Source: Candidatus Omnitrophota bacterium (lineage in GTDB: Bacteria > Omnitrophota > Gorgyraeia > Zapsychrales > JANLHA01). From it: a stretch of 32,000 nucleotides of DNA. The notes below the pieces were generated by a model, which saw only the letters and a list, made by a program, of their open reading frames with translations, ran no database searches and was not told the origin of the DNA. Positions 1 through 30,000 of the stretch are shown here, piece after piece (position 1 is the stretch's first letter; the number at the start of each line of letters is the position of its first letter). Both the position numbers and the translations under genes were made by a program. The DNA lies in contig OY759724.1 of assembly GCA_963662715.1 (NCBI GenBank), positions 1,260,001-1,292,000 of the forward strand, in the 5' to 3' direction.

Positions 1-3000
1 CCATGATCGCCCTTTCTGTGCGATAAGGACTAAGGTTTGACATCTTCGGAGAAAGGTTCTGCACCTGCTCTGGAGTCAAGGTGACCAATTCGTCATATTT
101 TGCCGGCGGCTGCACATCGAAAATAACTTCTCCCTGTGCCTGCGTCCTGATTTCAGAAGCAATCTGCGGATTCTCCTTCATTATTTCGGAAATCTTGGAA
201 ACCAAGACAGCTTCTTGCGGCTGGGAAGCGGCGTTCATGGACCCCGTCAAAGCCCTGAGATCGGAATAATTGATATCTTTCGCATCTTTAGCAACAACAG
301 AGGAAACTCTCTCCGGCAGTTCAATCGGAGAAGAAGAAGGCTTTTCTGTTAAGTCATAGGATTTCGCCATGAATTCACTGTTCGGCATTTCAACAAACTT
401 CTTTAAAGCTTTTTCATAATCATGATCCAGGTCCCCCCGGTTTTCCACAACCATAACACCGAGGACCTTCTCCTCTTCAAGCACTCTGAAGACAACCCTT
501 TGATTCCCCAGCCTGAGTTTATTAAGACCTTTTAAGGCCTGGTTGTATTCAAATTTAGACGGTTCCGGGCTCTCGAGGAAAGTTGTAAAGGAATCTGATA
601 ATCTGCTTTGGACTTGATTGAGCTTGGCCTTCCTGACGTCCTTCAACACGCGGACAGTATAGCCTTTAACATTTACCGGCTGAGCGGCTGCGGCCACTTC
701 GGCCGATGAAGAACCTTCAGTTCCTTCCCGTTTAGCGGCAAATTCTTTCTTTGACAGGCCCCAGCGCTGCAGATTATTCATAACCCGATGACGTGTCGAA
801 CCTGTCATGCTCTGTGTGAGGTCAATCAAATCTTCATACAGCTTAACTTCACCCTGGTCTACAGAATCTTGAATTAAATCTTTGATATCATCAAAAGCCG
901 CGCTTTCCTTGGCGTCCACAACAGCGCTGTCCGGAATCGGCATAATCTCCTGCTCCGGAGCGAGACTCTGTTCGGCAACCCGTAAAACCGGTTTAATTTC
1001 AGCATCAAATATTTCCTGTGCTTCTGACTTGGTGATCTTGGCAACGTCCGCCATGCGGGGCAGGGTAATATTAACATTATCGTCCTGCAATTTCACATAG
1101 GCGGCAGCCAAAGCCTGTCCTTTGGGAGAAATCCTTAAGGCATCGCCATACTGAACGACATCCTGAGGTGCTGATATGTAATTCTCTTGAATATAGGTCT
1201 TGGCCCTGGCCATTTCAGATCTGGCTTCAATGGATTTCTTCGGGCTGTTCTGGGTTTCACGGCTGTATGACAAGAGTAGATCAATAAACTTCTTAGGCTC
1301 AGTTCTTAAATCTGTCCGATCCAGTTCCTCCAGGATATCCGCTGCCTTAACGCTGACTCTTCCTCTGCCTTTGGTTAACTGAGCTTTAAACGGTTCGGCC
1401 TTCTTGACCGGACTGGACGTCGTGGCATTAACCACCGCGGATTGTGTCCCGTAATTCTCCGTGAGAATCTGCTGGAATTTAACCCGGTCGCTTGCGCGTA
1501 AAGAAATGATCTCATTACCGAATTTTTCAATCGTCTCAGCATCATCACTGTAAACCTTGACCCTGTTGCCGCGGGAAGTGACGGTAGGCGGAATACTCTG
1601 TTCCACTTTGGCTAATTTATCAACCGTAGGAATGAGTTCTCCGGCTGTCTGACCATCCAAATCAGAATCAACAACATTTGCCGTTAACCGGACCTTAGCA
1701 TCAACATCTATATTCTGATTAATTTCCTGCTCAACGGCATCAACGAAAGCCACAAAATCTTCTTCTTTTAAGTCGCGGTTAATGCCCTTGGGGATAACCA
1801 AATAGAAATTGTCCGGCGGGCCGCGAACCAAGCGCACGCCTCTGAGGTTTTGAGACTTTAATACTTTATTATAGGCTTCTGCCGAGGTCAGGATGACATT
1901 ATTCGCCAGTTCATGATCAGAGAATTCATTAATTACCTTAAATCCGAATTCCCCGTTATCATTTCCGCGCAAAGCATCGACAGTAAACTTGCCGGTGGCT
2001 ATAGATTCTTTAACTTGGGTGTCTAATTCGTCGTAAGGCACATATTTTGAGTCGTTTTTCACCAGGAACATCGCGTCTTGTGCCAATTGAGCTGTAACGA
2101 AATTCCCTAATTCCTCTCGTTTAAACGCCGGATAAGTCGGTTCCAGCTGATCCGTATAAAGCTCAATTCTTGGAGAAAGTTCCGCAGACAGGGCCGCCAC
2201 ATAATTTTCCCTTATAATCTGAGGAAGCGGCTCCATGGTTCCTTCTTCGTGATCAAAGTCTTTTAAACCTTCCTTAAAAGCTGTTCCCATGGCCCCGGCC
2301 TGGTCGCTCTCCTTGGCCAAATTAAGAATAAATTCTCCGCGCCGGATTGCCGCCCCATAGGAAGCGTCCACGCCGGAAGGCAACTGAGGAGCACGCTCAA
2401 CCCCAAAAGAAAGTTTCGGGCTGAACACTTCAAAAGGAGTCCCTGCCTGTTCGATTCTCGCATTAACGCCCGCCGCTGCTAATTTGGCATTAATAACCGT
2501 CAATCTGTCTTCCAGGCCTTTTTCCAAAGACTTGCCTTCGCGATCATAAACCACAAACGTCCCGTCAATATCTTCAAAGAAGGAATTCAACACCGTGTCC
2601 CCTAACTCTTCCTGAACCAGGTCAATCACGGCTTCCCGATGCTCAAGAGCGCTCACGCCAGCAAAATCCACCTTGCTGAATCCAAAGGCCCCGGGAATAA
2701 GCTGTTCAACTTTTTGCTGCGCTTCCTGACGGATAACATCCACGTCTTCCCTGGAAAGGTCTGACGGAAGGATAATACCAACTTCGTCCCCGGAAATTCG
2801 GATGGCCTGGCCGCCATGCTGCCGCATAACCTCATCAACAATCCGAACGCCGGCAGGAATAAGAATATCCACAACTTCTGAAGTATAGCTTTTATCCATA
2901 GCCGCTATCTTCGACATGTCGCCGAAACCAACCCATGCGCGCGGATCCTGCGCTAACTGCTCTTTCACGGCCTGAATGCCTTCCTGACCGGCTTTAACTT

Positions 3001-6000
3001 TAAAATAAGCATTCATGGCGTCAGGAGTAATAACCTTCCAGGTTGACTGCCCTTGCGTTCTGGATAAGAGCTGCATCGCTGCCGCAGAAATCGGAGAAGA
3101 GGAGGCAGAACCGCGGGATTGTCTAATATCAGACAACAGAGCCGATCCTTTTTGTTTGCTGACCGTAATCACACCTTTTGTCGTATTGGCATCCGGGACA
3201 TAGGTAAAAACATTGATATCTTTTGGTGTCATGGCTGCCGAATCATCCAACATAGCAATAGGCATATTTACAATTTCATCCATATCAGGCTCAAACACTA
3301 TACCTATAGGCTGAGCAACGATCTTGTCTGCCAATTCAGGAATAAGAAAATCAGCTGATAAACGGTCTTCTCTGCTCGGGCCAGGCACCTGACCGGACAA
3401 AACCCGGCGCCCAGGATGCGTATGATAAACTCCGAGCAATTTCTTTTCGCCCACGGCATTGGATTCAATCAATTGAGCGACATTTTGTGAATCCGGAACC
3501 AGATGTTGTCCTGTCCTCTCGGAATATTCTGTTAACGGAACCACATCCGTTATATTATACGTGCCTTCCGGTCCCTGTTGACCGAAAAGCAAGCCGGCTG
3601 ACTCTAAATAGGTTTCCTTTTCTTCCTGAGCAGGGATAATACTTGTTAGTCTGGCCAAATGATTAACAATTTTTGAAGGAACTGTGTCTGCGAGTTCAAC
3701 GGATATATTGGGAGTATTCTGCAAATTGTCAACGCTTACATTAGGATTCATCTCCTGCAATTTATCAAGAGAAGCTGTTCGTGCGATTGTGACCGGAGAA
3801 GAAACTGCCGTGGTTTCTCTAATAATAGCCCTGGCGTAGGTGGTCGGGCTTTCGGCAAATCGAACTGTATCGGTTTGTGCCGGATCCCAGGCCGTGCCTT
3901 TTGTTTCTGCTTTATCAACAACATTGGCGACAAAAGCTTTATCAATAGAGCCTTCCTGCGCCAAATTGGTCATCAAGGTATTGACGGCAAGGATAAATCT
4001 TGCGTCACGGGTTCCTGAACCGGTTTCTCCGCGGGTCATCAAACCGCCGTTTTCAATATAGTTGGCAAAAACTTCTTCGCCGTATTCTGCCTCTTCCGGA
4101 GAATAACGATACGAAGAGGCCATAATGTTATCGATGACGCTTACCGCCTGCTGGGTCGCATAATTATCAGACCGTCGGGCCGTGTTCATAATGCCTTGCA
4201 GTTCGCCGCTGGTATATTGCCCGGCTTTTCTCGGCTGATGGTTCTGCACTCTCTTTTCATTGTTGATAATTTCACGATGGAATCTTTCATGGTTGTAAAC
4301 AACGGCCGCATATTCCGTATAAGCTTCTTCGAGACTGACTCCCAGGGAATTCTGAATAGCGCCAACCGTCTGCAGGCTGAAATTATTCAAGTTAATATTT
4401 AACTTTCCGTTATCATAAACAGCTTTTCCGTCTCCTGCCGCAGCATTGGATCTTACGGAAACGATGCTCTTGTCTTTAAAGAAATCTGATTTTGCAACGG
4501 CCGTTTTGATAACATTGAACTGTTCCAGTGTCGGCTTGGCAATCTGGATTGGAGACGAAGAGGCTTCCACCTTTTGGCTTCCGGCGATATAATTTTGGGC
4601 TCTCAGGCTCTCTAACGTTGTTCCGTCCGCTTCCAGGCCACGGCCGTTAACCAACACAACCTCTTCAATACCCAAATCATTGATGATACGCTTCAATTCC
4701 CCGCTTTGCCGGGTGAAATTCGTTAATTGTCCGCTGCTGTTGACTGTGTTTGATCCGCTGTCAACCGCTAACACCAGCTTGCCGTTCTGCTTGCCTACCC
4801 GCATATATCCGCTGTAATCAACGCCGCCGGTCTTCAACCCGCCTAACTCCGGATAGTTTCTTTCATTCATAAAGGTTGCGTGCGGAGCTTTTGTCCCGTC
4901 TGTATAGACCTGTCTGCCCTTTAAGACATAGGTGATTCCTTCTGATAAAACTCCGCGCTCATCATTCGGGGCGGACTGAACTTCATCAATCGCCTGTGTC
5001 AGCCATCCGTACATGGCCGGATTCTTCTGCTCATAACTGCTCAAGCGGACATCTTTTTTCGTTTCCGGAGTAATGTCGACAGCGGACATCATTGACTTAA
5101 CGCTGTTATTAAAATCGCGCCGGATATCTGCCACCTCGGCCTTACCGTACTCGGCCTCCATCTGCCTCAGCTGATCCGCGCCCATGTCAACGATTTCCTG
5201 CACCAAAGCTTTTTCCTGTCCCCTCGGAGTATATTCGTTGCGGCTGATCATTTTTCCTAACCGATTGATCAGTGACGGGGCTCCGGAAACTCCCTCTAAC
5301 AACATCTGCCGGTTGAGGTCATTGGCCTTATTGCTGATTTCGGTCTTTTCCGCGCCGGAAGGCAGGCTATTGACTTTCCGGTTGGCCGAAGCCATCTCTT
5401 TCACAATCGGACGGGCATCATATTGCCGGTTTCCGGTTTCTGCGGCTTTGTTGTACCCCTGGACGGCTTTGTTAAATTGCTTCTTGGCTTCCTCAATGTC
5501 AAGCGCAATATTAGATATAGAGGAAGACGCTGTATCCTGAGAAAGGGCCATGCGGTCCTGGATACCGGAGAAATCTATGGACTGCTTCTTGACGTTGATC
5601 GCATTTACAAAATCCAGAGTTGAAACATTGCCCCATCTATTGACTTCATAAGCCAAGTCTTTCTGCGTATCCGTTAACTGGCTCGCATCCGCTGTTACAG
5701 CAGCTTTAACCTGATCCACGGTCGCATTGTATTGTTTGTAGGCGGCCATGGCCTGCTGCGTCGCGCTTTCCGGCAAATCAAGTTCCTGGACAAAAACTTC
5801 ATAACTGGCTTCCAGCACTTCTTTAAAGGCGCCGGCATCTTTCGTATAAGAAACATTAAAATCTGCCGGGAAGAACGCACTGTCGCCCATAACTTTATCC
5901 AAAGCCGAAATCTTCTGTTTGATTTGATCATCGCTCAGCTTGCCGGCTTTCTTCATTTTAACAGCCGCATTTGTCAAAACAGCTTTCTTGACACCTGCCC

Positions 6001-9000
6001 GGTAACCCTGATCTTCAAGAACCCGTCTGTTTAACTCATCCATTCTGGCTGTAACGGCAGCGGTCTTGACAAAAGAAGCGGCATCCTTGACGGAATACTG
6101 AACTCTTTCTTCAGAGTGGTATTTTCCGGCAACCTTCTTTTGTTTGCTGGTATACTGCTTTCCTGTAGATATATCGCTGTACGCCAGGAGATGACCGGCC
6201 ACGGACATGGAGGTCCCCGGCGCCATAGGGATAGCAGACACCTGAACATTATCTGTCGTCATGCCCCAGAGAATATTGCGGTAATATTCTGTGGACATCT
6301 GGGAAACTTCCATGGCATTGGCTGTTTCTCTGTCATAATCTTCCTGGCGGCTGTGATGGAAATGCACGCCGACTCCGGCCTTGACATTTTCCTCGCCAAG
6401 CATCACCGGTAAGCTTTCCGCCAAGCGCTGAACGCTGAACTGCTGAACCAACCATTCCTTCGCATCCGCCTTGCTCTTCACCTGATCCAGCATCGGGGAC
6501 ACGACTTCCGGACTGGCCAAATCTTTTTCTACCCGGGTCTCTCTCGGTCCGGCTTCACCGACACGATAGCCTAACTGGATTGTGGGGTCTTCGGATATCG
6601 GCTGTGCTTCACTCTCTGTCTTCCCTGTCACCACATATAATAACTTGCCTAATAAATCATCTGTTTTCTCCAGCTGAACGGACTCTAAGCCGGAGATTTC
6701 CATGTCCACGCCTATCTTGCGGTTCTGCAGGCTGTCGACAAAAAGGTCTATGAAGCCCGCATTGTCCAACTCATTAAAATCTTTTTCGGCTTCACTGCGG
6801 ATAGCGGCCCGCAACGCATCATTATTATTAAACAGCTCTACAACCTGCTGTTTAGGCAAACTTGCTATTGTGCTTGGACGTTGTTTTATACTGAAATCCC
6901 TAATTGGAGAACTTGTCAAACCGGATCCGAAACCGGAAGAAATCTTTGGCGCAGAAGACAACTGGAAGGTAGGCAGCAATCCCGAGCTGACAGGAGCCAC
7001 AGGAATGACCGGAGAAGAAACGACCGGCTGTTTAATCGTCGGCATACCCACAGGAGGCGCCAGACCGGTTGAAGATGTCACTTCCCTTGTTGAAAGATCC
7101 GTCATATCTGTTGTTTCAACAGAGCCGTATTTCTGCAATTGGGTATCCACAGAAGCCGGGCTGATATCCCCCATAACCTGCTGAGAAATACTGCCGGCGG
7201 AATCTGAGGATTGAGATATCTGTGACTGATAATAGTTGGTCGCATATGGCATAATGGCTGTCAAAGCTGCCGGAGCGTCTACAACAGGAGCCGGAGAAGT
7301 TCCGCTTGGAGCCCCATCTCCCCGTCCCGAGGCTTCTGATTTTCTAAGATCTGATATCTCGGCAGGATTCTCTTCTGTTTTCCAATTTCTTCTTTGTCTC
7401 TTTGACGTTGAAGAAGCTGTATCTTTTCCAGAATTTTTGGAAGAAGAACTTTCATCTCCCCGCCCCGAAGCTTCCGCTTTTCTAAGATCTGATATCTCGG
7501 CAGGGTTCTCTTCTGTTTTCCAATTTCTTCTTTGTCTCTTTGGTTTTGGAGGCGTCATCGAAGCTTCTTCAATAGAAGAGGACACCTTCACTTCTTTACT
7601 CTGCTCTGGAGGCGTTACGGAAGAATCATCCTGTTTGGGAGGAACAAAACCTTTCTTTTTGCTAGGATCCGTAGAAATCCTCTTGCTGCCCGTAAAGACA
7701 GATGAAATATCAGAAGACGCGTCTAAAATCGGCGAGGATTGTCTTAGCGGGCCTTCGGTTGAAAGATCCAGCATCATCTGCCAATAGTCCTTAACCGCTC
7801 CTGAGAAATCCTCTTCCTTGGTCGCACTCTTATTAGCATAATACGCCGCCAAGACCGTCTTTCTAAAATCTTTTAAGGCTTGAGGGTCTTTTTCCACCTC
7901 AGCAATATCAAACCACCTCTGTCCCATCAAATCACGCGTATTCACATCAAACGCCAATACTCCCGAAAGCGTCACCCGCGTCCCCATTTTCTGCAGTGCT
8001 TCCGCCGTTCCTGCTTTTGTTAATATGCTCTCAAATCTCCTCTGGCTCGTTAACACCGATATCATGTCCTGAGGACTTAACAACGTTAAAGACGTCTCCT
8101 GCGGCCCAGCATATTCCTCCAATGCTCTGGCATAAACCCCTGTCAGTGTATCGCTCTCTTTTTCCGCTTTCGTAAACGAATTGTGCACATGCGCAAATCC
8201 AAGAGAATGATCCGCCTGCTGGTTCTTTAACGCTGTCTTTAAATTGAACGCCGCTGTCGGATACACAAACCGAGGACTCGAGAAGGTCTCGATCCCCAGC
8301 TCCCCATCCAAATACAGGTTGTCTGTCATCCCGTTAATCTGACCGTTTTCTATTGAGAACTGCCCTGCCACCTTCTGCGCCTTGATCGTTTCGATGACTT
8401 TCTGCTCTAACTCTTCATTGCTGATGCTGTCTCTTTCCCGGCCCGGGAACATTTCATGCAGCTTCTCGGCAGAGAAGAACCGCGCCATGGAAATATCCTG
8501 CGCCAAGACAATATCTTTCCCTGATAAGAAGAACCGGTTGCCGTCATCCTGCTCCACTTCCGAAATGATCGGATGTGACGCGATTTCCAAGCCAAACTGA
8601 TACGTGCCGCCACCGTTGACTTTCCGCATGGCCGGCAATGCCCGGGTCCACCCGTAAATATTCTTGTCTAAATCTCTCACATCATTCACACCCAAGCTCT
8701 TGGGAACCAGAATATGGGAGAATGTTCCGCCCGGGTCCATGGCAATCAGGTAAACTCCGAATTCTATAGGCTGGCTAAACTTCCGAACATCTTCCTGGAA
8801 CACTGTCTCAATCTCGCTCAAAGGATATCTGAATTTCGTTCTCTGCGGCGAAACCGCTGCCCCGTTCTCCCTTGGTTTTCTCCCGAATAAACTGATGGGA
8901 GAAGACTGTGCTGTTTCTTTATCTAATAATGATGAGCTTCGCGCAATCTCAACTTTCTGCTCTTTTTGAATAGAGGAAGAAACTTTCGGCTTAGAATCAT

Positions 9001-12000
9001 TAAATGTTCTCACCATATCACCAACGGCTGATTCTGCCTTCCGGGCACCATCTTCTTCCTGAAGCGCAACAACAATATTATCTATTTCAGAGACACCAAA
9101 AGCACCCGCAGCGCTAACCTCCGGCTGCTGCAACTTTTGAACGATTGTTTCTGTTAATTGGTCCGGACTCTTTGCCCCGGACAAAGCAATCTCCGTAACG
9201 ATTTCGCCCAGAACCGGGTTGTCTACAGCTGCCGCATGAATCTTTAATGTATCTCCTTCTTGTGAAACCAGAGGATTTTGCAGCCCGCTAATCACTTCAA
9301 TAGTATTTACTCCCGTCACCATTAAGTCAGACTGTTTATTTAAACTGCTCTGAAGTTTAACTTTTTGCTCTGGAGTTCCCTGCACAGCCACCAAAGACTC
9401 TCCCACCTGCAACGGCATACCCACATCGAGATTATACTGGGTAAAGAATTGCCTAAGCTCTTCATTGCTTTGCATCTTGCCGACCAAAGCTATCAAATCC
9501 TGATCCCCTGCCCCGGAATGGAACCTTATGGCTTCCTCCGGAATATGAAGGAAAGGTGAAACATGGCCAAACAATTCTACGGCTGCTCCGAATTCGGTTT
9601 TCGCAAGAGGCATCTCGGCTAACTTGTGCAAATCTTCCTTGGTAACGATATGACCCGGTTTCTGTAATGTCTGCAATTGATTAAGGAAAGCCACTGTAGA
9701 CTCATCCGTTTCGTCAAACTGACGGCTCTTTTGAATACGCTGTTCTATATGCTTTAATTCCGTCTTCACCTGCTCCAAGGAAAGATCTGTCCGTTGCGAA
9801 TCTTCAATCCCGGCAATCAGGTCATACACTGGGTGATCGTATTTCATGTTTCCCTTAGCCTGATATTTATCCAAAAGATTGCCTACAAGGGTTTTCAATT
9901 CTTCATCCCCAGATTTTTCAACAATGTCTTTCAATTGTGATAAACGACCAACCACAAACCCAGGGGAAGATGTTTCTTTCTTTTCTGTTAAAGCATGATT
10001 TCCGTCATGGAACAAAGCCATCAAGTGACTGACAAAATCCCTTCGTGTCTTTTCCTTGCTAATATATATCTGCGAACCCGGACCTCCTGTTTCACTGTCT
10101 TGGTCATCAAATTCTTTATAATTCGCAAGCGTACCCGGAGCATACATACCCTGTTTATTGTTCGCGACATTCAATTCATCCTGAATTAAATACTGAAGAT
10201 CCACTCCCGCCTCTTGGAATGCCACTAAGAGACGGTCAATTTTCTGGTTAAAGGCGGCTTGGGTTTCCGCATCAAATTGGCCGCCCAGCCGTAAATTAGG
10301 TTTGGACGCCTCGACAGCACTCTTCATTTCTGCAAAAGAAAGATCCTTAACCATGGCCATATTATACTCCCGGCCTGAGGCTAATTGGCCAAAGAGCGGG
10401 CCAACCAAGGATTGATCCCGGCTGTTCTGATAATGCGGGCTTTGAGAGAGGACGTAGAACGGAAGCATTGTGGCTAACAATTCGTTCCATGACCCATCCC
10501 CGGCATGCTCAAAACCATAATGCTCTTGGCCACGCACATCTACACTATATAACCCTTCCTTAAATATACTGCCATCGACAACCTCTCCGCCTTCGTTAAA
10601 TAAAGCTTCTGTTGCCCCGGCCCCTAAAACCCGGTCGAGACGTTTTGTCTGCACCCATTGTTCTCTTAATATCTTTTGCCCTTGCGGTGTCTTATCCAGA
10701 TTATTAAGCGTATCCAGGAAGTGATGGCCTAAAATTTCGTGAATAGGCTCCCAGACCTTCTTATAGGAATCACTCTGTCCTTTTGAACTAAAACCGCTCA
10801 AGGCTGTACGGATATCTGTAGTGCCTCTGGCATGTTCTGCTGCCGCCTCACCTTTCTTGTCCATTCTCCGGCCAGGAACCAAAGAGAAGCTCACCCGCTC
10901 TAATTCTGCTTCTAATTTTTGATCTCCAAAAAGAGCCTCTCCTTGCCCAACCCCCAAAATGTCTTTGGCCAACGGCAAAACATCCCGCTGCCAAATAATA
11001 CTTCTCGTTTCCATTTCTTTGGATATCCGGTTCAACTGGGAAACGACCTTTTCCGCATTATAATCAACCGTGCTTGCCCCCTGTAAAATTCGATATAATT
11101 TAGCCGCTTGAGCATTAGTTAAAGAATCGGACAGGCCTAAATCAAAGCTGCTCTTAAGCTGGTCAAACTTATCCTGAACAACCCCTCTTTCATCAATATA
11201 TCCATTCTCCACTAATTCAGAGAAAAGACTGTCTGCTTTTCTCTGTTTTCTTGCCGCGCGCTCTTTAGAGGAAAGGCCTTTCCCCGTAACCGTAACGACT
11301 GAAGCCAAGTCCTGTGCTGTAACAGGCCGGCCGGTCTCTGAACCAGCTACAGCCAAAATCTGTCTGTTTATTTCTGCTCTTAAAGCATTTTGTTTTTCTG
11401 CTACCACTACTTTCCGTTTCTCCAGCTCGGTTCTTTCTTCTTGAGAAATGTTTCCTTTCTTCTGCAAACCGGATTCCAATTCTTTCAGGTCAGCTTCTGC
11501 TTTCCTCTGCTCAGCCACTAAGGCATTGAGCATCGGCAACACGTCCGCCAGCAAAGCTTCTCCAGCTCTTTCGGCAAGATTAGCCGAAGGAGAGTCTTCC
11601 GAAGCGTTTAATTCATTATATTTGTGCTCGTACAGAAGAGCGATAACCGTATTCTCAACACTAAGGCTCTCCTGCAATTGTTTTTTACCGCGTCCCACAG
11701 GAGCAATAAAGTTATCAATCGACCGGTCATGAACTTCTATTTGGTCAAAATCAGCAATATTATCCGGAACTGTCAAACCCTGCCCGTTATTCAAAGCCTT
11801 GATATATCCGCTATCCAAAGACAAATTCTCTTGCGGAGCCACGGCAATTCTTAATTTGGCCTGCTGCAGTCTTGTTTTATAAGCTTTAGCCTGTGTCGAC
11901 TCGTTGCCGTTGGCATCTCGAGGAGCGACACCCAACAGAGTCAAGGTATCATCTTCACTTAAATTCAATTCCTCGGCAACTTTATTCACCATATAAGGGG

Positions 12001-15000
12001 TCACCATTCTCATCTGCCTGTTTCCGCTTCCCGCCATAACAGAATCCGCCAATTTACCCAATCGGGAATAAAATTTGTATTCCACAGAATTCTTATCATA
12101 ACTTTCCAAAGTCGGTCCCAAAGCATCAATGAAAGCTAAAATTTGCCGGCCTTCTCCATTAGGAGACATGAAACGTAACGGCAATTGCCCGACAGCATTC
12201 TTCATAAAGGTGCTTCTTTCAGCCCGATTCATAAAAATATTCCGCAAATTATTAAATTCCCCTGTCGAGGCATACATTTCATTAGTTATAAGTTCGGTCA
12301 TCATACGCATTTCACGGCCGTTTCTTAAAGCATGTCCCTCACTGCCTCCTATACCTAAATCACTAAGACTCATAAGTTCACTAGCGTATCGCTTCTGATC
12401 ATCCTGTCTCATCTCGACAGCTGCTTTTTCCCTGGCAGCTTTAACTTTTTTCACAACCTTTGCCACATATTTACTTGGTTTCACGCTCTTATCTGCTGAA
12501 ATAACCCGGTCAATGACTCTATCAATCAATTCCGGAGAATAAAAATCATCAAGAGTCAATGTACTCTCAACCAATGCTTCATTCCCGGATATTTGTGCGG
12601 CATTTGCGCTCTGCTCGCGGATCATGCTGTCCGCCTTCTGCCAAACAGGATTATCCCTATAGGTCCCCACGGCATACAAACCAGCCATAATTTTTAAAGC
12701 TCTGAACCGCTGATTGCCTTTATCTTTACCGGTTAAGCCTAAAACTTCCTGAGCCTTTTTGATCGTTCTGACAGAAGGACTTGAATAAAGGCTTGTTGCT
12801 TCACTCAATGTGGCTTTATCTTCTTCCTCCCCTCCGAGAGAACTATTGATAATGCTGAATTGTTTCGCCCGTTCCTGAACAATCTCCATCATAAAGTCAG
12901 AGACCTCTTTGTCGTTTACAACGCCGGCCAAAACTTCTTGCTTGCGCAGGGGATCGTCCTCTGAAGCATAAAGCACGGACATAAAATCTTCCATAGACAG
13001 GTCACCAGGTCCAATTAAACCGGCAGCGGCTAATTCCCCGATATTATTGTCTAAATTCAGGAAATTGGAAAGTCCGGATGTAAAGGAATGAGTGAAGCTA
13101 ATATACGAATTTTGAGCCAAACTCACGGCAACATCCATCCCCTTGACAAAGTTTGCCCGCAGATCATCCTGTGTTAACGGTGCCGCTAAATTGCCTTGAC
13201 TGTCTCTTGTTCTGCGGGCAAGACCAAATGTTCCTGTTGCAGGATCAAGTTGAGGGGCTGTTCCTTGTGGCATAACTTTAAATATTCGGAGCAATGCCTG
13301 TTCCTGCGGACCGCTGAGCGTTGCCAAACTCGCAAAAGTTTCAAGGGCATCAGGATTAATCTGGCGGTCGAGATCGCTCACTCCTTCCGAGACATCGGAA
13401 AGGACCCCGGGAATGGCGGCAAGAGTCTGGAAGTACGTTTCTGCTTCTTGCCCGGAAATATTTACAGCGTCAAACAACTCGCCCACCGTCTGAGGAACAG
13501 CCTGACCGTTCCAAACCTTTCCCTGAGGACGTAATGGAACAAAAGTATCGCTTGCGGTCTTCCCAATAGTAATTGTTGTCTGATTTTCAAACCCGGGATA
13601 TTGTTGAGTGAAGTCTCCCATTTCGTTACGGGATAAAATGGATTTTGTAATATCTGCCACTCTGTCTGCGGCTAAGAAATAAGGTAAGGACTCACCTGCT
13701 GTCGGTCCGCCGTAAATCAGACCTTCCAACATAGACTGTGTTTTGGGAAGCAATAAAGCAAAAATTTCGCTGTTTCTCCCCATTTTCGTTTCCATAAATC
13801 TGGCCGTGGAATCCAAGGCATCCCGTATAACAAAGTCCGTGGCACGGGCTTCTTTAAATTTGTTCATCAAAATAGAATCCGAGGTCAAGGCCTCTGTTCT
13901 TAACAATTCCAAAGCCCTAATAACGTTTTCCCGCCCGCCCCCTGGCGCTGACCGCTCAGCCATAATTGCATCGTCAATCGCCCGGTATTTCGGAGTCATT
14001 GCTAATTCCACGGCTAACCGCGTATTTTCTATTCTTGACGCCATTCTTTGATTCTTATTTAATGTCTTTACGACAAAATCATTATATGCCTTTGGCCCTT
14101 GTTCTCCTGTAGAGCCTTTTTGTTCCGTGGCCAAAAGAACTCGAGTCGGCATATTGGCAAAATCAATAGATTCTTTGCCGCTGGCATCAAAGCTCATAAT
14201 CCCGCGAGGCCGGCCTATAGCCTGCCTGACCATTTCAAAGAAAGACCGCGGAGTAGAAACAACGATCGCGATACTGTCTGCTTTAAAACCGAAGTTTGCA
14301 CCAACGGCTCTCGGCCCGAATGTAATAATAATCGGTGCCTCATTGTCAAAATGCATCTTCTTTAAACTATCGACCTTCCGATTGCCTTTAATAGCCTGCG
14401 AAAGAGTTTCCCCGCTGGCTCTGTCCCAAACAATTTCCCGGCCATTGGTATCCAGAACAATGATTGTTGACTTTTTGTGAGTTGGAAGCTGTCCGACACT
14501 TGCCTCAATTTGTTTTACAACTTTTTCATTCACTAAATATGTATCCGGGAAGAAGAGGTGCAGGGCTCTCTTGGCCAACGACTTCCCTCCGGAAATCGCA
14601 TCAATATTATTAACGATGGCTTTTCCAGGGTTTGATTCACGGGCTGCTATAAATTTATCGGTTTCGTTTTCCCCTGGTCTGAACGGGACCTGCGAACTCC
14701 CCATGGCATTTGAGTCTTTTATACTCATGGTGACCAGTTCATTAGCGCCATAAAGTTTTAGCATTGTGGGAGATAAAGGCGAGGCGCTGATCATTAAGAC
14801 ATTTGATCCTTCAGTCTTAACAAGATCCCTCATAATTGTGTCAAAACTAACCCGGGTGATTGTCTGTGTCACTTCAACGCCTTTCGGATTTCCTTTTTTA
14901 CGACCAAAAATCGGGGATTGGATCAATTCATCCATAACCGGCCTGATGAGATCCTGCACTTTCACATCATAAGCTTCGCCTCCCATCAAACTCACCGGAC

Positions 15001-27000: not shown

Positions 27001-30000
27001 CCGGCTGGGCTGCTGCTGTCTTTAGTGCTTCTTCATCAACAACAACTTCTTCGGGAATTTCAAAACCTTCAGCCGCATCAACGTCAACAGCGGTTTCTTC
27101 CGTTTTTGCAACAACTTCGGCGCTAGGCACGCCTTCAATTCCGGCGGCAGCAAGACCGACTACGGCATCAATCCCCGCCACGGTCACTTCTCCATCGGTT
27201 TGGACTTCCCGTTCTCCCTGCATTTCGTCCCCGACCACCGTGCCCAAGGATCTAATTTTCATAATGGTCGGATCAAAACCCAACTCTTCAGCCTCTTCTT
27301 TACTGAATTTTCTCCCATCATAAAGATATGCACCGCTTTCAGGATCATACGACATAAAACCGATATAATGACGTCCGGTAAGATTATCGGTCTGTCTGAA
27401 TGCCCGGCCCTTTGTCAAAATATGCTGAGAGGAACCAGTCCCTCGAACAAAAGGACTGGAACGAAAAGCGACTATAGGGGAAGACTCTCCCTCAGAATCT
27501 TTAGAAATTAATGCCTCAATTAAATTTTGCACATCCAGCTTCGTCAGCTTTACAGCCTCTTCTCCTTGCTCCAGATTACCGCTTTCTTCTTTTCCGGTGT
27601 CTTCTTCCATTTCAAAATAAACACTCAGCACCCCGTCCTCTAGCTCTCCAATGTGTAATCTATTTAAATTAACACCTTCTTCTTTTAGAGCTGTTACAAT
27701 TTTTCCCGTCTCTTCATCATCCCAAAACTCAGTTTTTTCTTCAGCTTTTAACCCGCCAAATTCAGCCACAGAACCAACCAAATCCGCATCAAACATCCAG
27801 TCCACAGGAAGAACACCGACAATACCAAACATAGCCGCTAAAGTCTTAACCCCCGGCCCCACCAAATCCCATAAACTATCTACAGTTACTAAATCATATT
27901 TAATATAATAAGGGGTTTCTGCCGTATTTTCACCAATCAAAATCTTTCGGCTTGCCTCGGTAAACGGATCTTTATGAAAAACAAATTTCGTTATTCCCTC
28001 AGAGGTGTTTTCTTTAAGGAAGCTTATTATAAAATCAAAAATTTGTTCCCTGGAGAGCGGCTCTGTTTCTTCCGTTGCACCCGCAAAAGAAACATTTAAA
28101 TTTCCTTCAATCTCTTTTATATCCAGACCTTCTAAAGAAATTCCTTCCGCTTCCAAAGCATTTAAAACCTCTTCCTTCTTTTCCTTGTTCCAGTCTGTTC
28201 CTCCCTCAAGCGCGGCCTCGGAAAAAACAACATCTCCTTCTTCCCCGGATAAAATAGCCGTGATCGCATCCATCACCTTTTCTTTTGCAACGGATTTTGT
28301 TGTTCCTTCGCTGTCCTCGCCTTCCTCAAAATAAACATCAAGCTGACCGTTCTGCAGTTCTCTAATACTCAATTCTTCCACATCCACGCCCTCTGCTTCC
28401 AAAGCTTTTAAAAGCTTCTCTTTTTTCCCGGATTTCCCCCATTCATCCTCCCGGGCAATCGGCCTGTAAGCAAAACCAAGGATATCCCTATATACCTTAA
28501 TATATCCGGGATCGCTGGAAACGGCAGAAGCCACATATTCAACACTGCGCTTAATATTTGAAATGGCAGAACCGGCTGCGGCCTGAGAAAAATTGTCAAC
28601 CCAGAAACCGATTTGATTATCCTCAACCATCAGAAGAAAAGACATCCCAACTTCTATGTTAATTTCTTCATCTGTCTTATCGGCATCCTTTAAATCATCC
28701 GAAACGGCATCACTGTCATCCCAGCCCCAGGCATACCAAGCATCCGGAGCATTATATCCGCCCTCTTGCTCTTTAGCTTCCTCTCTTTCCTTTTCAAGTT
28801 CTTCTCTTTTTTCCTGAGCCTTAAGAACCACATCCAAAGTAATACCACCCATATGAGCTAGTTCATCAGTATATGTGCTGAAATCAGAAAGACTGTTAAA
28901 AGACCCGCCTACCGGAGCTGCTGTCACCCAGTTGCCCACCAAATTTTGTCCAAAACGGATAAAAGAATCCCCCACGGTCTGCCAGAAAATAGAACCATAC
29001 TCGTTAGCTTCCTTATCGTTCTTATAATTCTCTCCGTCTTTGGCTGCTTCGCTTCCGTTGGCCGCATTATAGGAATTTTTAAAAGTTCCGGCTATGCTGG
29101 CGAACAATCCTTCTGTTATCACAGACCCCAAGAAAATCATAGTCGAAGCCCAAAACGTTTGAAACCTATCTTCCTTTTTCTTTACTTTTCCATTAGCATC
29201 CTTCTCAGAAAAATCATCTTCCGGGAATAGCCATTGTGCCAGAAGAACCGATATCGTTGTCTGTACAAGCCCTCGGACCATAGTCCCCCAGAACGAATTA
29301 TGAACAAAGGCAATATCTGCTGTTCCATTCCCATCCGTATCTAAAAGTTCAACCGGTGTTTTTCCGGTAATAATATTTTCAACATAAGCCTTTCCGTCTC
29401 CATCTTTATAGGGGTCTCCATTTTCATTTACTATTTTAGGATCATTCTTTTTATCTTCATCATCTAAATTATGATATTCACCCACATCTCCGCCATACCA
29501 AATTTCAGCCATTAAAGCCTGCCCTATAAGATTTCCAAATTGCCCAATCAGCTGGGACGCCATACTGCTACTATCAAAAGTATCTTTAAATAAAGACCTT
29601 AAAATATAATTCATCAGCCCTCCAGCCATACGCTGCAAGGCCATAAACCCAAGTTCCCCCAAGTTGACCATAAAAGAATTATATCCAGCTTTAGCAGTAT
29701 CAAAAGTGTTTTGCCAAAGATTCGCTTGCTCCTCAGGACTCATGTTAGGGTTATTGGCAAGAGCATCCTGCAGGGCGGCATTTGCCTCATTAGTAGCATA
29801 ATTTGTTTTAGATTTATCTGAATTATCACTCAGGCCAACCAATTCTCTGTTTCCCAGAGCGTCTGTGTCCCTGCTGGCTGGCTCATCAAACATAGCATCA
29901 GCAGCTGCATCCAACCCCATAACAACCAAACCTACAGCAATATCAGCCGCCAAAGAAGAAACCAACCCTACCACTACTGACTTGAGGACTTCGTCATCTA

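Follow-up and report, generated by a model that had tools for sequence, protein, structure and literature searches.

It is a stated open question whether Omnitrophota giant proteins work as one chain each or are cut into many proteins, and a short motif in one of them bears on it. The stretch of DNA analysed here, referred to as the window, comprises 32,000 nucleotides of a Candidatus Omnitrophota genome (GCA_963662715.1, contig OY759724.1, positions 1,260,001 to 1,292,000) and is almost wholly occupied by one minus-strand open reading frame (ORF) of at least 10,569 amino acids (aa), whose C-terminus lies beyond the low end of the window. An original prediction had noticed that Ser-Ser-Pro followed by Ile or Val (SSP[IV]) punctuates the C-proximal part of this protein, and had read the motif as a conserved inter-module junction and possibly as the cleavage site of a polyprotein that carries its own proteases. 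We find that the SSP junction motif is real and apparently undescribed. It is a short linear protein motif in flexible linkers between independently folding modules, both in the window protein and in a subset of its Omnitrophota relatives. As for its function, recognition and cutting by an endoprotease, followed by export of some of the pieces, would be the best explanation that the sequences offer, and we give it an even chance.

Enrichment of the motif in the window protein and its relatives

Six-frame translation showed one minus-strand frame to be stop-free over 10,570 codons and still open at the low end of the window. The ten coordinates and peptides quoted in the original prediction were all correct, and they fall in this one minus-strand frame, within a single ORF. 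Ten in-frame copies of SSP[IV] compare with 0.27 expected from composition (Poisson P ~4e-13). Shuffled controls, which had been proposed as a check, pointed to strong enrichment: in 2000 shuffles of the whole sequence and 2000 confined to blocks of 50, 100, 200 or 500 aa, the means were 0.26-0.36 and the maximum was 4. All but one of the ten sites fall within the last 28% of the protein (P ~8e-5), and the earlier statement that none occurs between about 9000 and 27000 holds for SSP[IV], with SSPG (9959-9970) and SSPS (12773-12784) standing alone there. The motif was not simply picked after the fact: no tripeptide in the protein is more enriched than SSP (14 versus 2.1 expected), and SSPI ties as its commonest tetrapeptide.

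A word-index search with the HExxH and JAB modules of the window found one protein, the Omnitrophota fragment P0001, which itself carries four SSP[IV] in 647 aa. A search of the genome collection turned up only two relatives of the window, L001 and L002 (53-54% identity), with 20 and 20 copies of SSP[IVL], respectively, in ~7,100 aa of open frame. The closest relatives of the window protein are proteins of Candidatus Omnitrophota/Omnitrophica metagenome-assembled genomes (MAGs), except for one record titled Planctomycetales. This record, L002 (CAZAXH010000003.1), is titled 'uncultured Planctomycetales bacterium', yet its giant gene, in which a masked run of N breaks the frame, is 53% identical to that of the window and collinear with the Omnitrophota MAG L001. 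Metagenome scans gave no matches. SSP was the top de novo tripeptide in 7 of the 74 homologues from an exhaustive search and in P0001, and it ranked second in a ninth protein. The motif is a trait of a subset of Omnitrophota lineages or protein families. Motif-free relatives showed no prominent alternative junction motif, only a weak excess of SSA[IVL] (19 versus 6.6). A proteome-wide bias was rejected, as neighbouring genes at three loci (45 genes, 15,976 aa) held 0 motifs versus 24 in the three target proteins.

The 16 motif-bearing proteins contain 124 copies of SSP[IVL] versus 3.2 expected. All four positions are specific, with S at positions 1 and 2, P at position 3 and V54/I47/L23/M4 at position 4, Met being the sole other favoured residue there; single substitutions are uncommon. 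A sequence logo built from the 10 window sites and from 117 sites pooled from relatives, a motif-positive set chosen by the motif, was informative at five positions only and otherwise at noise level from -15 to +18. Position -1 held S, A, V, T or I (~1 bit) and position 4 held V (0.42), I (0.39) or L (0.19), so that the full motif reads [S/A/V/T]-S-S-P-[V/I/L].

An independent sample, chosen regardless of the motif, came from a search with a conserved N-domain. Members of this family begin with a Sec (general secretory) signal peptide and the ~340-aa N-domain ('FWVNLRPDSP', 'YYSLILAQWFK', ending 'Y.SGG'), which occupies aa 1-~350 of P0041, P0043, P0023, P0039 and P0067. There were 319 database matches, of which the best 120 were analysed. 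Among these 120 proteins, SSP[IVLM] occurred 0 times in 38,284 aa of N-domain (2.5 expected) and 43 times in 17,109 aa downstream (1.7 expected), a 25-fold enrichment just downstream of the N-domain. SSP was again the top tripeptide, and SSPI and SSPV were the top tetrapeptides.

Position of the motif at module junctions

The sites and modules of the window are listed below in protein order, with window coordinates. Confidence in AlphaFold2 (AF2) models is given as the predicted local distance difference test score (pLDDT).

2-31708, minus strand: giant ORF, aa 1-10,569; stop-free frame, Met start at 31708
27473-27484, minus strand: SSPI, aa 1409, isolated N-proximal site, then SSPF 8 aa on
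8894-8905, minus strand: SSPI, aa 7602, first of the C-proximal array; opens a 389-aa module
7727-7738, minus strand: SSPI, aa 7991; opens a low-complexity spacer holding a 30-aa duplication
7007-7018, minus strand: SSPV, aa 8231, in a low-complexity S/P-rich spacer; not conserved, SSSI in L001
6902-6913, minus strand: SSPI, aa 8266; opens a 785-aa module; conserved in L001 and L002
4547-4558, minus strand: SSPI, aa 9051; opens the HExxH module; an L001 homology block begins exactly here
3803-4546, minus strand: HExxH (zincin-like) module, aa 9055-9302; 60% identical to L001
3791-3802, minus strand: SSPV, aa 9303, HExxH/JAB junction; L001 homology ends 7 aa upstream; pLDDT <50, near a model end
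3101-3790, minus strand: JAB/MPN module, aa 9307-9536; Pfam Prok-JAB 28.8 bits versus cut-off 25
3089-3100, minus strand: SSPI, aa 9537, JAB/GGDEF-like junction; P0001 homology ends at aligned ASSPV/SSSPI
1418-3088, minus strand: GGDEF/palm-like module, aa 9541-10097; weak Pfam GGDEF match
1406-1417, minus strand: SSPV, aa 10098, junction leading into the next module; also kept in L001 and L002; aligned SSPA in P0002; low pLDDT in both models, near their ends
335-1405, minus strand: 357-aa module with a helical domain and a weak RelE/ParE-like C-terminal part; helical part AF2 pLDDT 85-94
323-334, minus strand: SSPI, aa 10459, junction that follows the RelE/ParE-like part; also kept in L001 and L002; within model residues 370-380, a stretch of pLDDT <50

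The order of modules had been read correctly. The JAB module passes its Pfam cut-off and has an MPN fold (AF2 pLDDT 84-96; Foldseek matches to CSN6 and Rpn11), while the GGDEF palm was recovered by fold search in addition to its weak Pfam match (AF2 pLDDT ~90; Foldseek matches to diguanylate cyclases and Cas10; ~50 homologues). The HExxH module is present, with no Pfam, NCBIfam or PDB sequence match, and the RelE/ParE-like part gave weak matches (Pfam ParE_toxin E 0.03; Foldseek RelE fold not significant). For the other modules too, NCBIfam and PDB sequence searches yielded no family.

A location inside folded domain cores had been named as grounds for refuting the junction reading; structure prediction placed none of the five sites that it covered in such a core. 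Model 1 (aa 9290-10110; 31-sequence alignment; mean pLDDT 79.6) contains two confident domains, which Foldseek matched to MPN/JAB and to a GGDEF/Cas10-type palm, and its internal motif (model residues 248-251) falls inside the pLDDT <50 linker (244-273) between them. The internal motif of model 2 (aa 10085-10569), that at aa 10459 (model residues 375-378), lies in a pLDDT <50 loop.

Conservation of the motif at boundaries, another check that had been proposed, was borne out, since homology with relatives starts and stops at the motif. P0001 is 55% identical to the window JAB module up to the aligned ASSPV/SSSPI and unrelated beyond it. Alignment of the window with L001 gives a block that opens precisely at the motif of aa 9051 and stops 7 residues before the next motif (9303), and then a block that opens at the motif of aa 10098. 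Between these conserved sites the window has the JAB and GGDEF-like modules, whereas L001 has four others, unrelated to these and each bounded by motifs. P0023 987-1527 and P0067 2734-3277, which are related at 34% identity, are each flanked by motifs on both sides. In P0043, P0041 and P0039 a motif precedes the JAB module at three different ranks, and two genes at the same chromosomal locus are alike only at their ends. Pfam borders agree with this picture: a motif lies 3 residues past a HATPase_c (histidine-kinase ATPase) domain, and motifs bracket Methyltransf_28 and Metallophos domains. Judged from these alignments, motif-delimited modules have been swapped, lost and permuted among relatives. 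The junction proposed earlier is thus supported by the shuffles, the linkers of the AF2 models, the homology break points, the module exchange and the replicate family.

Three points limit these tests. The alignment behind model 2 was very shallow. The remaining three of the five modelled sites have low confidence, but they lie near model ends, where this is expected, and are uninformative. Over all pairs, 213 of 734 end points of high-scoring segment pairs (HSPs) had a motif within ~20 residues, an excess over the 48±16 obtained for random motif positions that favours junctions, but these end points are mutually non-independent.

Sites also differ in their standing and in their persistence. 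Those at 7007-7018 (SSSI in the closest relatives) and 27473-27484 are weaker as junctions, and no homologue covering the latter region was obtained. Four of the six alignable window sites are conserved in L001 and two are exchanged with SSSI (window 8231; L001 1279), and one L001 site lies 50 residues off that of the window in the same spacer. At orthologous positions of the N-domain family, SSPI alternates with SSSI, and SSSP[VI] with SGSP[VI]. Such gain and loss of sites is typical of short linear motifs in disordered regions.

Some further features of the array were observed. The SSPF at window 27449-27460 lies eight residues past the isolated N-proximal SSPI (GESSPIVAFRSSPFVRG); relatives too have sites in pairs, spaced by 10-14 residues (L001 526/540, 3323/3334 and 6711/6724; P0067 1737/1747). 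The segment aa 7435-8142 is without a counterpart in L001. A basic/acidic unit of 30 aa, KRQRRNWKTEENPAEISDLRK[A/S]EASGRGD, occurs twice in the low-complexity spacer that two SSP sites flank, each copy ending in RGD (window 7313-7402 and 7451-7540; aa 8103-8132 and 8057-8086). The modules at window 7739-8905 and 4559-6913 contain HxH-type strings (AHVHNS; VHFHHSRQEDYD), maybe degenerate JAB-like or other metal sites, with no Pfam support.

Possible proteolytic processing and its alternatives

The same short motif at unit junctions in linkers predicted to be exposed is a polyprotein-type trait, and it is present here. In the most likely reading, an endoprotease would recognise the motif and cut the polyprotein into separate proteins; the cut would expose Tat (twin-arginine translocation) or Sec signal peptides lying immediately after the motif, and the pieces with exposed signals would then be exported individually. 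Consensus and hydropathy were the criteria for calling signal peptides. Across 154,250 aa of these proteins there are three matches to the strict Tat consensus [ST]RR.F[LIV]K, and two of the three begin 1-2 residues past a motif (SSPI-TRREFLKNAAIGLGTVAVAA and SSPV-NISRRGFIKKTAKIAGVVAV), a coincidence with a chance of order 1e-5. The first of these heads module 313-620 of P0002, which ends at the next motif and carries a Tse3-type peptidoglycan muramidase domain at the Pfam cut-off. A peptidoglycan muramidase must leave the cytoplasm. Sec-like signal peptides, with a Lys-rich start, ~15 hydrophobic residues and a polar end, directly follow the motif in P0041 (twice), P0043 and P0067, the first three being paralogous. 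A cut at the motif would make these internal signals N-terminal. Moreover, the modules look like whole proteins, because the N-domain occurs free-standing and P0185 consists of the N-domain, SSPI and a C-terminal domain.

Two other internal Tat signals, SRRNFLK and SRRGFLK (P0071 aa 385-420; P0124 ~60 aa past the N-domain), are preceded by 'NDP.NV.I', not by SSP; this string may be a second junction type in motif-poor relatives.

If the motif is cut, general protease knowledge would place the scissile bond just after or just before [V/I/L]. Elastase- and subtilisin-type serine proteases cleave Ala-Ala-Pro-Val/Leu/Met after the aliphatic residue, which the V/I/L/M after Pro in the motif resembles. 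Many zinc proteases prefer a hydrophobic P1' residue and cut before it, and the same post-Pro V/I/L/M would suit them. Signal peptidase I, for which the small residues at -3 and -1 would fit, was rejected, since Pro at +1 blocks this enzyme.

Several observations weigh against processing. About 50 of the 74 homologues are without the motif, though they are also Omnitrophota proteins. The motif is not fixed, as shown by the turnover of orthologous sites (SSPV/SSSI, SSSPV/SGSPV), and such replacements (SSPV/SSSI) imply that Pro is not indispensable at every site. Among the cis modules (HExxH, JAB, C39 and serine type), no protease was found to track the motif: HExxH modules were rejected because they are 10-18-fold enriched in motif-rich and motif-free relatives alike, JAB likewise occurs in both sets, C39 is absent from the 3-4 kaa motif-rich family, and a serine protease was rejected as no serine-protease signature is present in cis. 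In addition, the Tat or hydrophobic segments found internally here could serve as topology elements or be left over from gene fusion. Such segments can work uncleaved, for example in dual Sec/Tat-inserted membrane proteins such as actinobacterial Rieske proteins, and we therefore keep cleavage at about one half. The earlier polyprotein reading is accordingly left as plausible: the Tat and Sec signals right after the motif are circumstantial evidence for it, and cleavage is something that we infer. Its corollary, that the protein carries its own proteases, stands insofar as C39, JAB and HExxH modules are present; none of them is tied to the motif. The fuller proposal, to which we give somewhat less than an even chance, is that SSP[V/I/L] would be a cleavage code and that giant or multi-module genes would be 'operons in one reading frame', whose products a dedicated protease releases for individual sorting to the cytoplasm, Tat or Sec.

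Alternatively, the motif may be read and not cut, as a docking or modification site in the linkers of an intact giant chain. It could bind a chaperone, a prolyl isomerase or the export machinery of the protein itself, or its serines could be glycosylated or phosphorylated, and it would organise or regulate the modules inside one intact giant polypeptide. High positional specificity with free flanks is typical of any recognition motif, the linkers are predicted to be exposed and are of low confidence in the models, and published literature leaves single-chain action open. A faint hint is that two syntenic motif-rich genes have a cyclophilin-type isomerase gene directly upstream, but the third locus examined has none. 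A motif that is read and left intact also gives no account of signal peptides starting exactly past it, or of its presence at the natural ends of domains that are also found free-standing. We consider this alternative rather unlikely.

A passive linker cassette appears less likely again. Here the motif would be a Pro-containing cap that stops secondary structure and insulates the folding of modules, inherited by shuffling and having no reader enzyme. It would explain why the tested sites are all in linkers, why orthologous sites swap Pro for Ser or Ala and Ser for Gly, and how many relatives manage without the motif. However, such a cap needs neither two invariant serines nor an aliphatic residue, and the variants TSP, ASP and STP are hardly used; the next-best variants, SSS, SSA and SAP followed by I/V/L, are only 3-4-fold enriched in the 16 motif-bearing proteins. 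Retention of the motif at both module ends at 34% identity, and maintenance of Ser across two codon families, also speak against a passive role.

A signal at the level of DNA or translation is highly improbable. Modules are exchanged at motif points, as expected of cassette recombination sites, and the I/V/L/M at position 4 are the residues of near-cognate start codons, which might suggest internal starts. However, codons vary freely between sites and genomes, with both TCN and AGY used for Ser and all four codons used for Pro, which places the constraint on the protein and not on a DNA repeat or an internal start codon. A DNA-level repeat or recombination site was rejected on this ground, and twelve variable bases are too few for homologous recombination. 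Internal start codons at position 4 were rejected because its Val codons follow background usage and are mostly GTT, GTC and GTA, which are not start codons, and mostly not GTG.

Finally, chance or the compositional bias of Ser/Pro-rich linkers can be set aside as having next to no probability: the site at aa 8231 does lie in an S/P-rich low-complexity stretch, but shuffles within 50-aa blocks, which keep local composition, still gave at most 4 copies versus 10, the Poisson probability is very small, and the enrichment was replicated in independent proteins.

N-terminal region, putative carrier domain and gene neighbourhoods

The N-terminal part of the window protein holds one further feature.

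30809-31261, minus strand: peptidase C39-like (papain-fold) domain, ~aa 150-300; Pfam PF03412

The PF03412 match covers aa 216-296 (E 1e-6; 28.9 bits versus cut-off 22), and Cys172 within 'NCGVYAL' and a His within 'SEHFVTV' are in catalytic-type contexts. Hydropathy places hydrophobic or transmembrane segments on both sides of the domain (aa ~42-60 and 330-600). Two traits of the Omnitrophota giant proteins of C39 architecture are therefore present here, namely a single ORF of >10,000 codons and a C39 domain near the N-terminus beside membrane segments, and the window gene agrees with published accounts, in which Omnitrophota giant genes encode N-terminal membrane segments and C39 domains. 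The Pfam search of the ORF also found a glycine-zipper region amid hydrophobic segments. For the divergent SecA DEAD-like helicase domain, another trait of that group, it gave a weak PF00270 DEAD match at ~aa 5247-5385 (E 0.0024; 18.1 bits versus cut-off 26), with no match to PF07517. The 10,569-aa protein has four cysteines only, all in its first 405 residues (window 31193-31195, 30563-30565, 30539-30541 and 30494-30496). Plus-strand GC skew is negative in all 2-kb bins (-0.09 to -0.30), the coding (minus) strand thus being G-rich throughout, and G+C drops from 0.48 to 0.41 toward the 5' end of the giant gene.

In the relatives, the N-domain occurs free-standing (342-356 aa, on 100-260 kb contigs), in P0185 and with 5-10 cargo modules. 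The free-standing form ends where the linker and first motif begin in longer members, and the 537 aa of P0185 comprise the N-domain, SSPI and a C-terminal domain only. The N-domain looks like a carrier chassis for exchangeable modules. A conserved C-terminal domain of ~140 aa closes many Omnitrophota multi-module proteins with or without the SSP motif (P0041 3160-3295, P0043 3239-3371, P0067 3906-4038, P0023 2697-2828 and others), and no Pfam or NCBIfam model matched it. This domain, with the signature 'GGIDFRxLPI...EW..IE.M..GI.PS.ERIKEY..C....LSCIADILR.EEE', often follows a last SSP[IVL] by 8-15 residues.

At the relatives' loci, a gene for a cyclophilin-type peptidyl-prolyl isomerase (L004 9199-9741; L005 1151-1690) lies directly upstream of the syntenic motif-rich genes of P0043 and P0023, with uvrD downstream. 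No cyclophilin gene was found at the third locus examined, that of P0041, beside dnaA-dnaN-gyrBA. Downstream genes at the three loci are housekeeping genes.

Comparison with known systems

A border motif that can be found by a regular expression allows giant proteins to be segmented for annotation and modelling. It also predicts exact peptide termini, and it provides a handle for finding the protease through co-occurrence of genes with motif density. In function its nearest models are MARTX toxins, viral polyproteins, the processing of Mycoplasma hyopneumoniae adhesins at a motif and the junction motifs of polymorphic toxins, but it belongs to none of these.

The MARTX toxins of Vibrio and its relatives are huge chains with strain-variable, unrelated effector modules that are released at short linkers. 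The window protein is likewise very large, with an array of unrelated enzyme modules and short linkers. MARTX toxins differ in having their own C80 cysteine protease, which cuts after Leu, as well as RTX-type repeats, type I secretion and another motif, whereas cleavage in the window protein is putative; a Pfam search of the window found neither a C80 protease domain nor RTX/GD-rich repeats. In polymorphic toxins, a short peptide (VENN of CdiA; PxxxxDPxGL of Rhs) marks the place where a conserved part meets an exchangeable part, and homology between alleles breaks there. In CdiA and Rhs proteins, however, there is only one junction, which precedes one C-terminal toxin, and an immunity gene comes next, while the proteins studied here have ten or more junctions between enzyme-like modules; no immunity-type neighbour gene was seen at the three relatives' loci.

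Among bacterial proteins that are processed at a short motif, the P97/P102/P146 adhesins of Mycoplasma hyopneumoniae are cut at S/T-X-F|X-D/E in predicted disordered regions; the protease was unknown when that motif was defined, and the termini were mapped by mass spectrometry (PMC3322551). They resemble the window protein in being large bacterial proteins with a short motif in disorder, and differ in motif, lineage and surface-adhesin biology; mapped termini are theirs alone.

A further comparison is with the Omnitrophota giants themselves, whose architecture is treated in two papers (West-Roberts et al. 2023; a 2026 complete-genome survey). They share with the window protein its Omnitrophota relatives, a size of >10 kaa and N-terminal membrane segments with C39, and the histidine-kinase ATPase, methyltransferase and GGDEF-type content of its relatives is a further likeness. 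Archaeovorin-type content (glycosyl hydrolase/transferase, NUDIX, dockerin and TSP3 repeats) had no Pfam match in the 10,569 aa of the window. West-Roberts et al. 2023 raised possible proteolytic processing of the Omnitrophota giant proteins, which were not split for structure prediction since information on cleavage points was lacking. Neither their paper nor the 2026 complete-genome survey mentions a junction or cleavage motif, and the literature searched contained no paper joining 'Omnitrophota' and 'polyprotein', which does not prove a wider absence.

A parallel in design is with viral polyproteins (picornavirus 3C, Q|G; coronavirus, LQ|S), which likewise have a signature of 4-5 residues with free flanks at every junction, exposed linkers and protease modules in the chain. 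They differ in that we are dealing here with a cellular bacterial gene of >10,000 codons, whose processing is proposed from its sequence. If cleavage proves true, bacterial cells would have a counterpart of their own to the polyprotein expression of viruses, at a scale without precedent.

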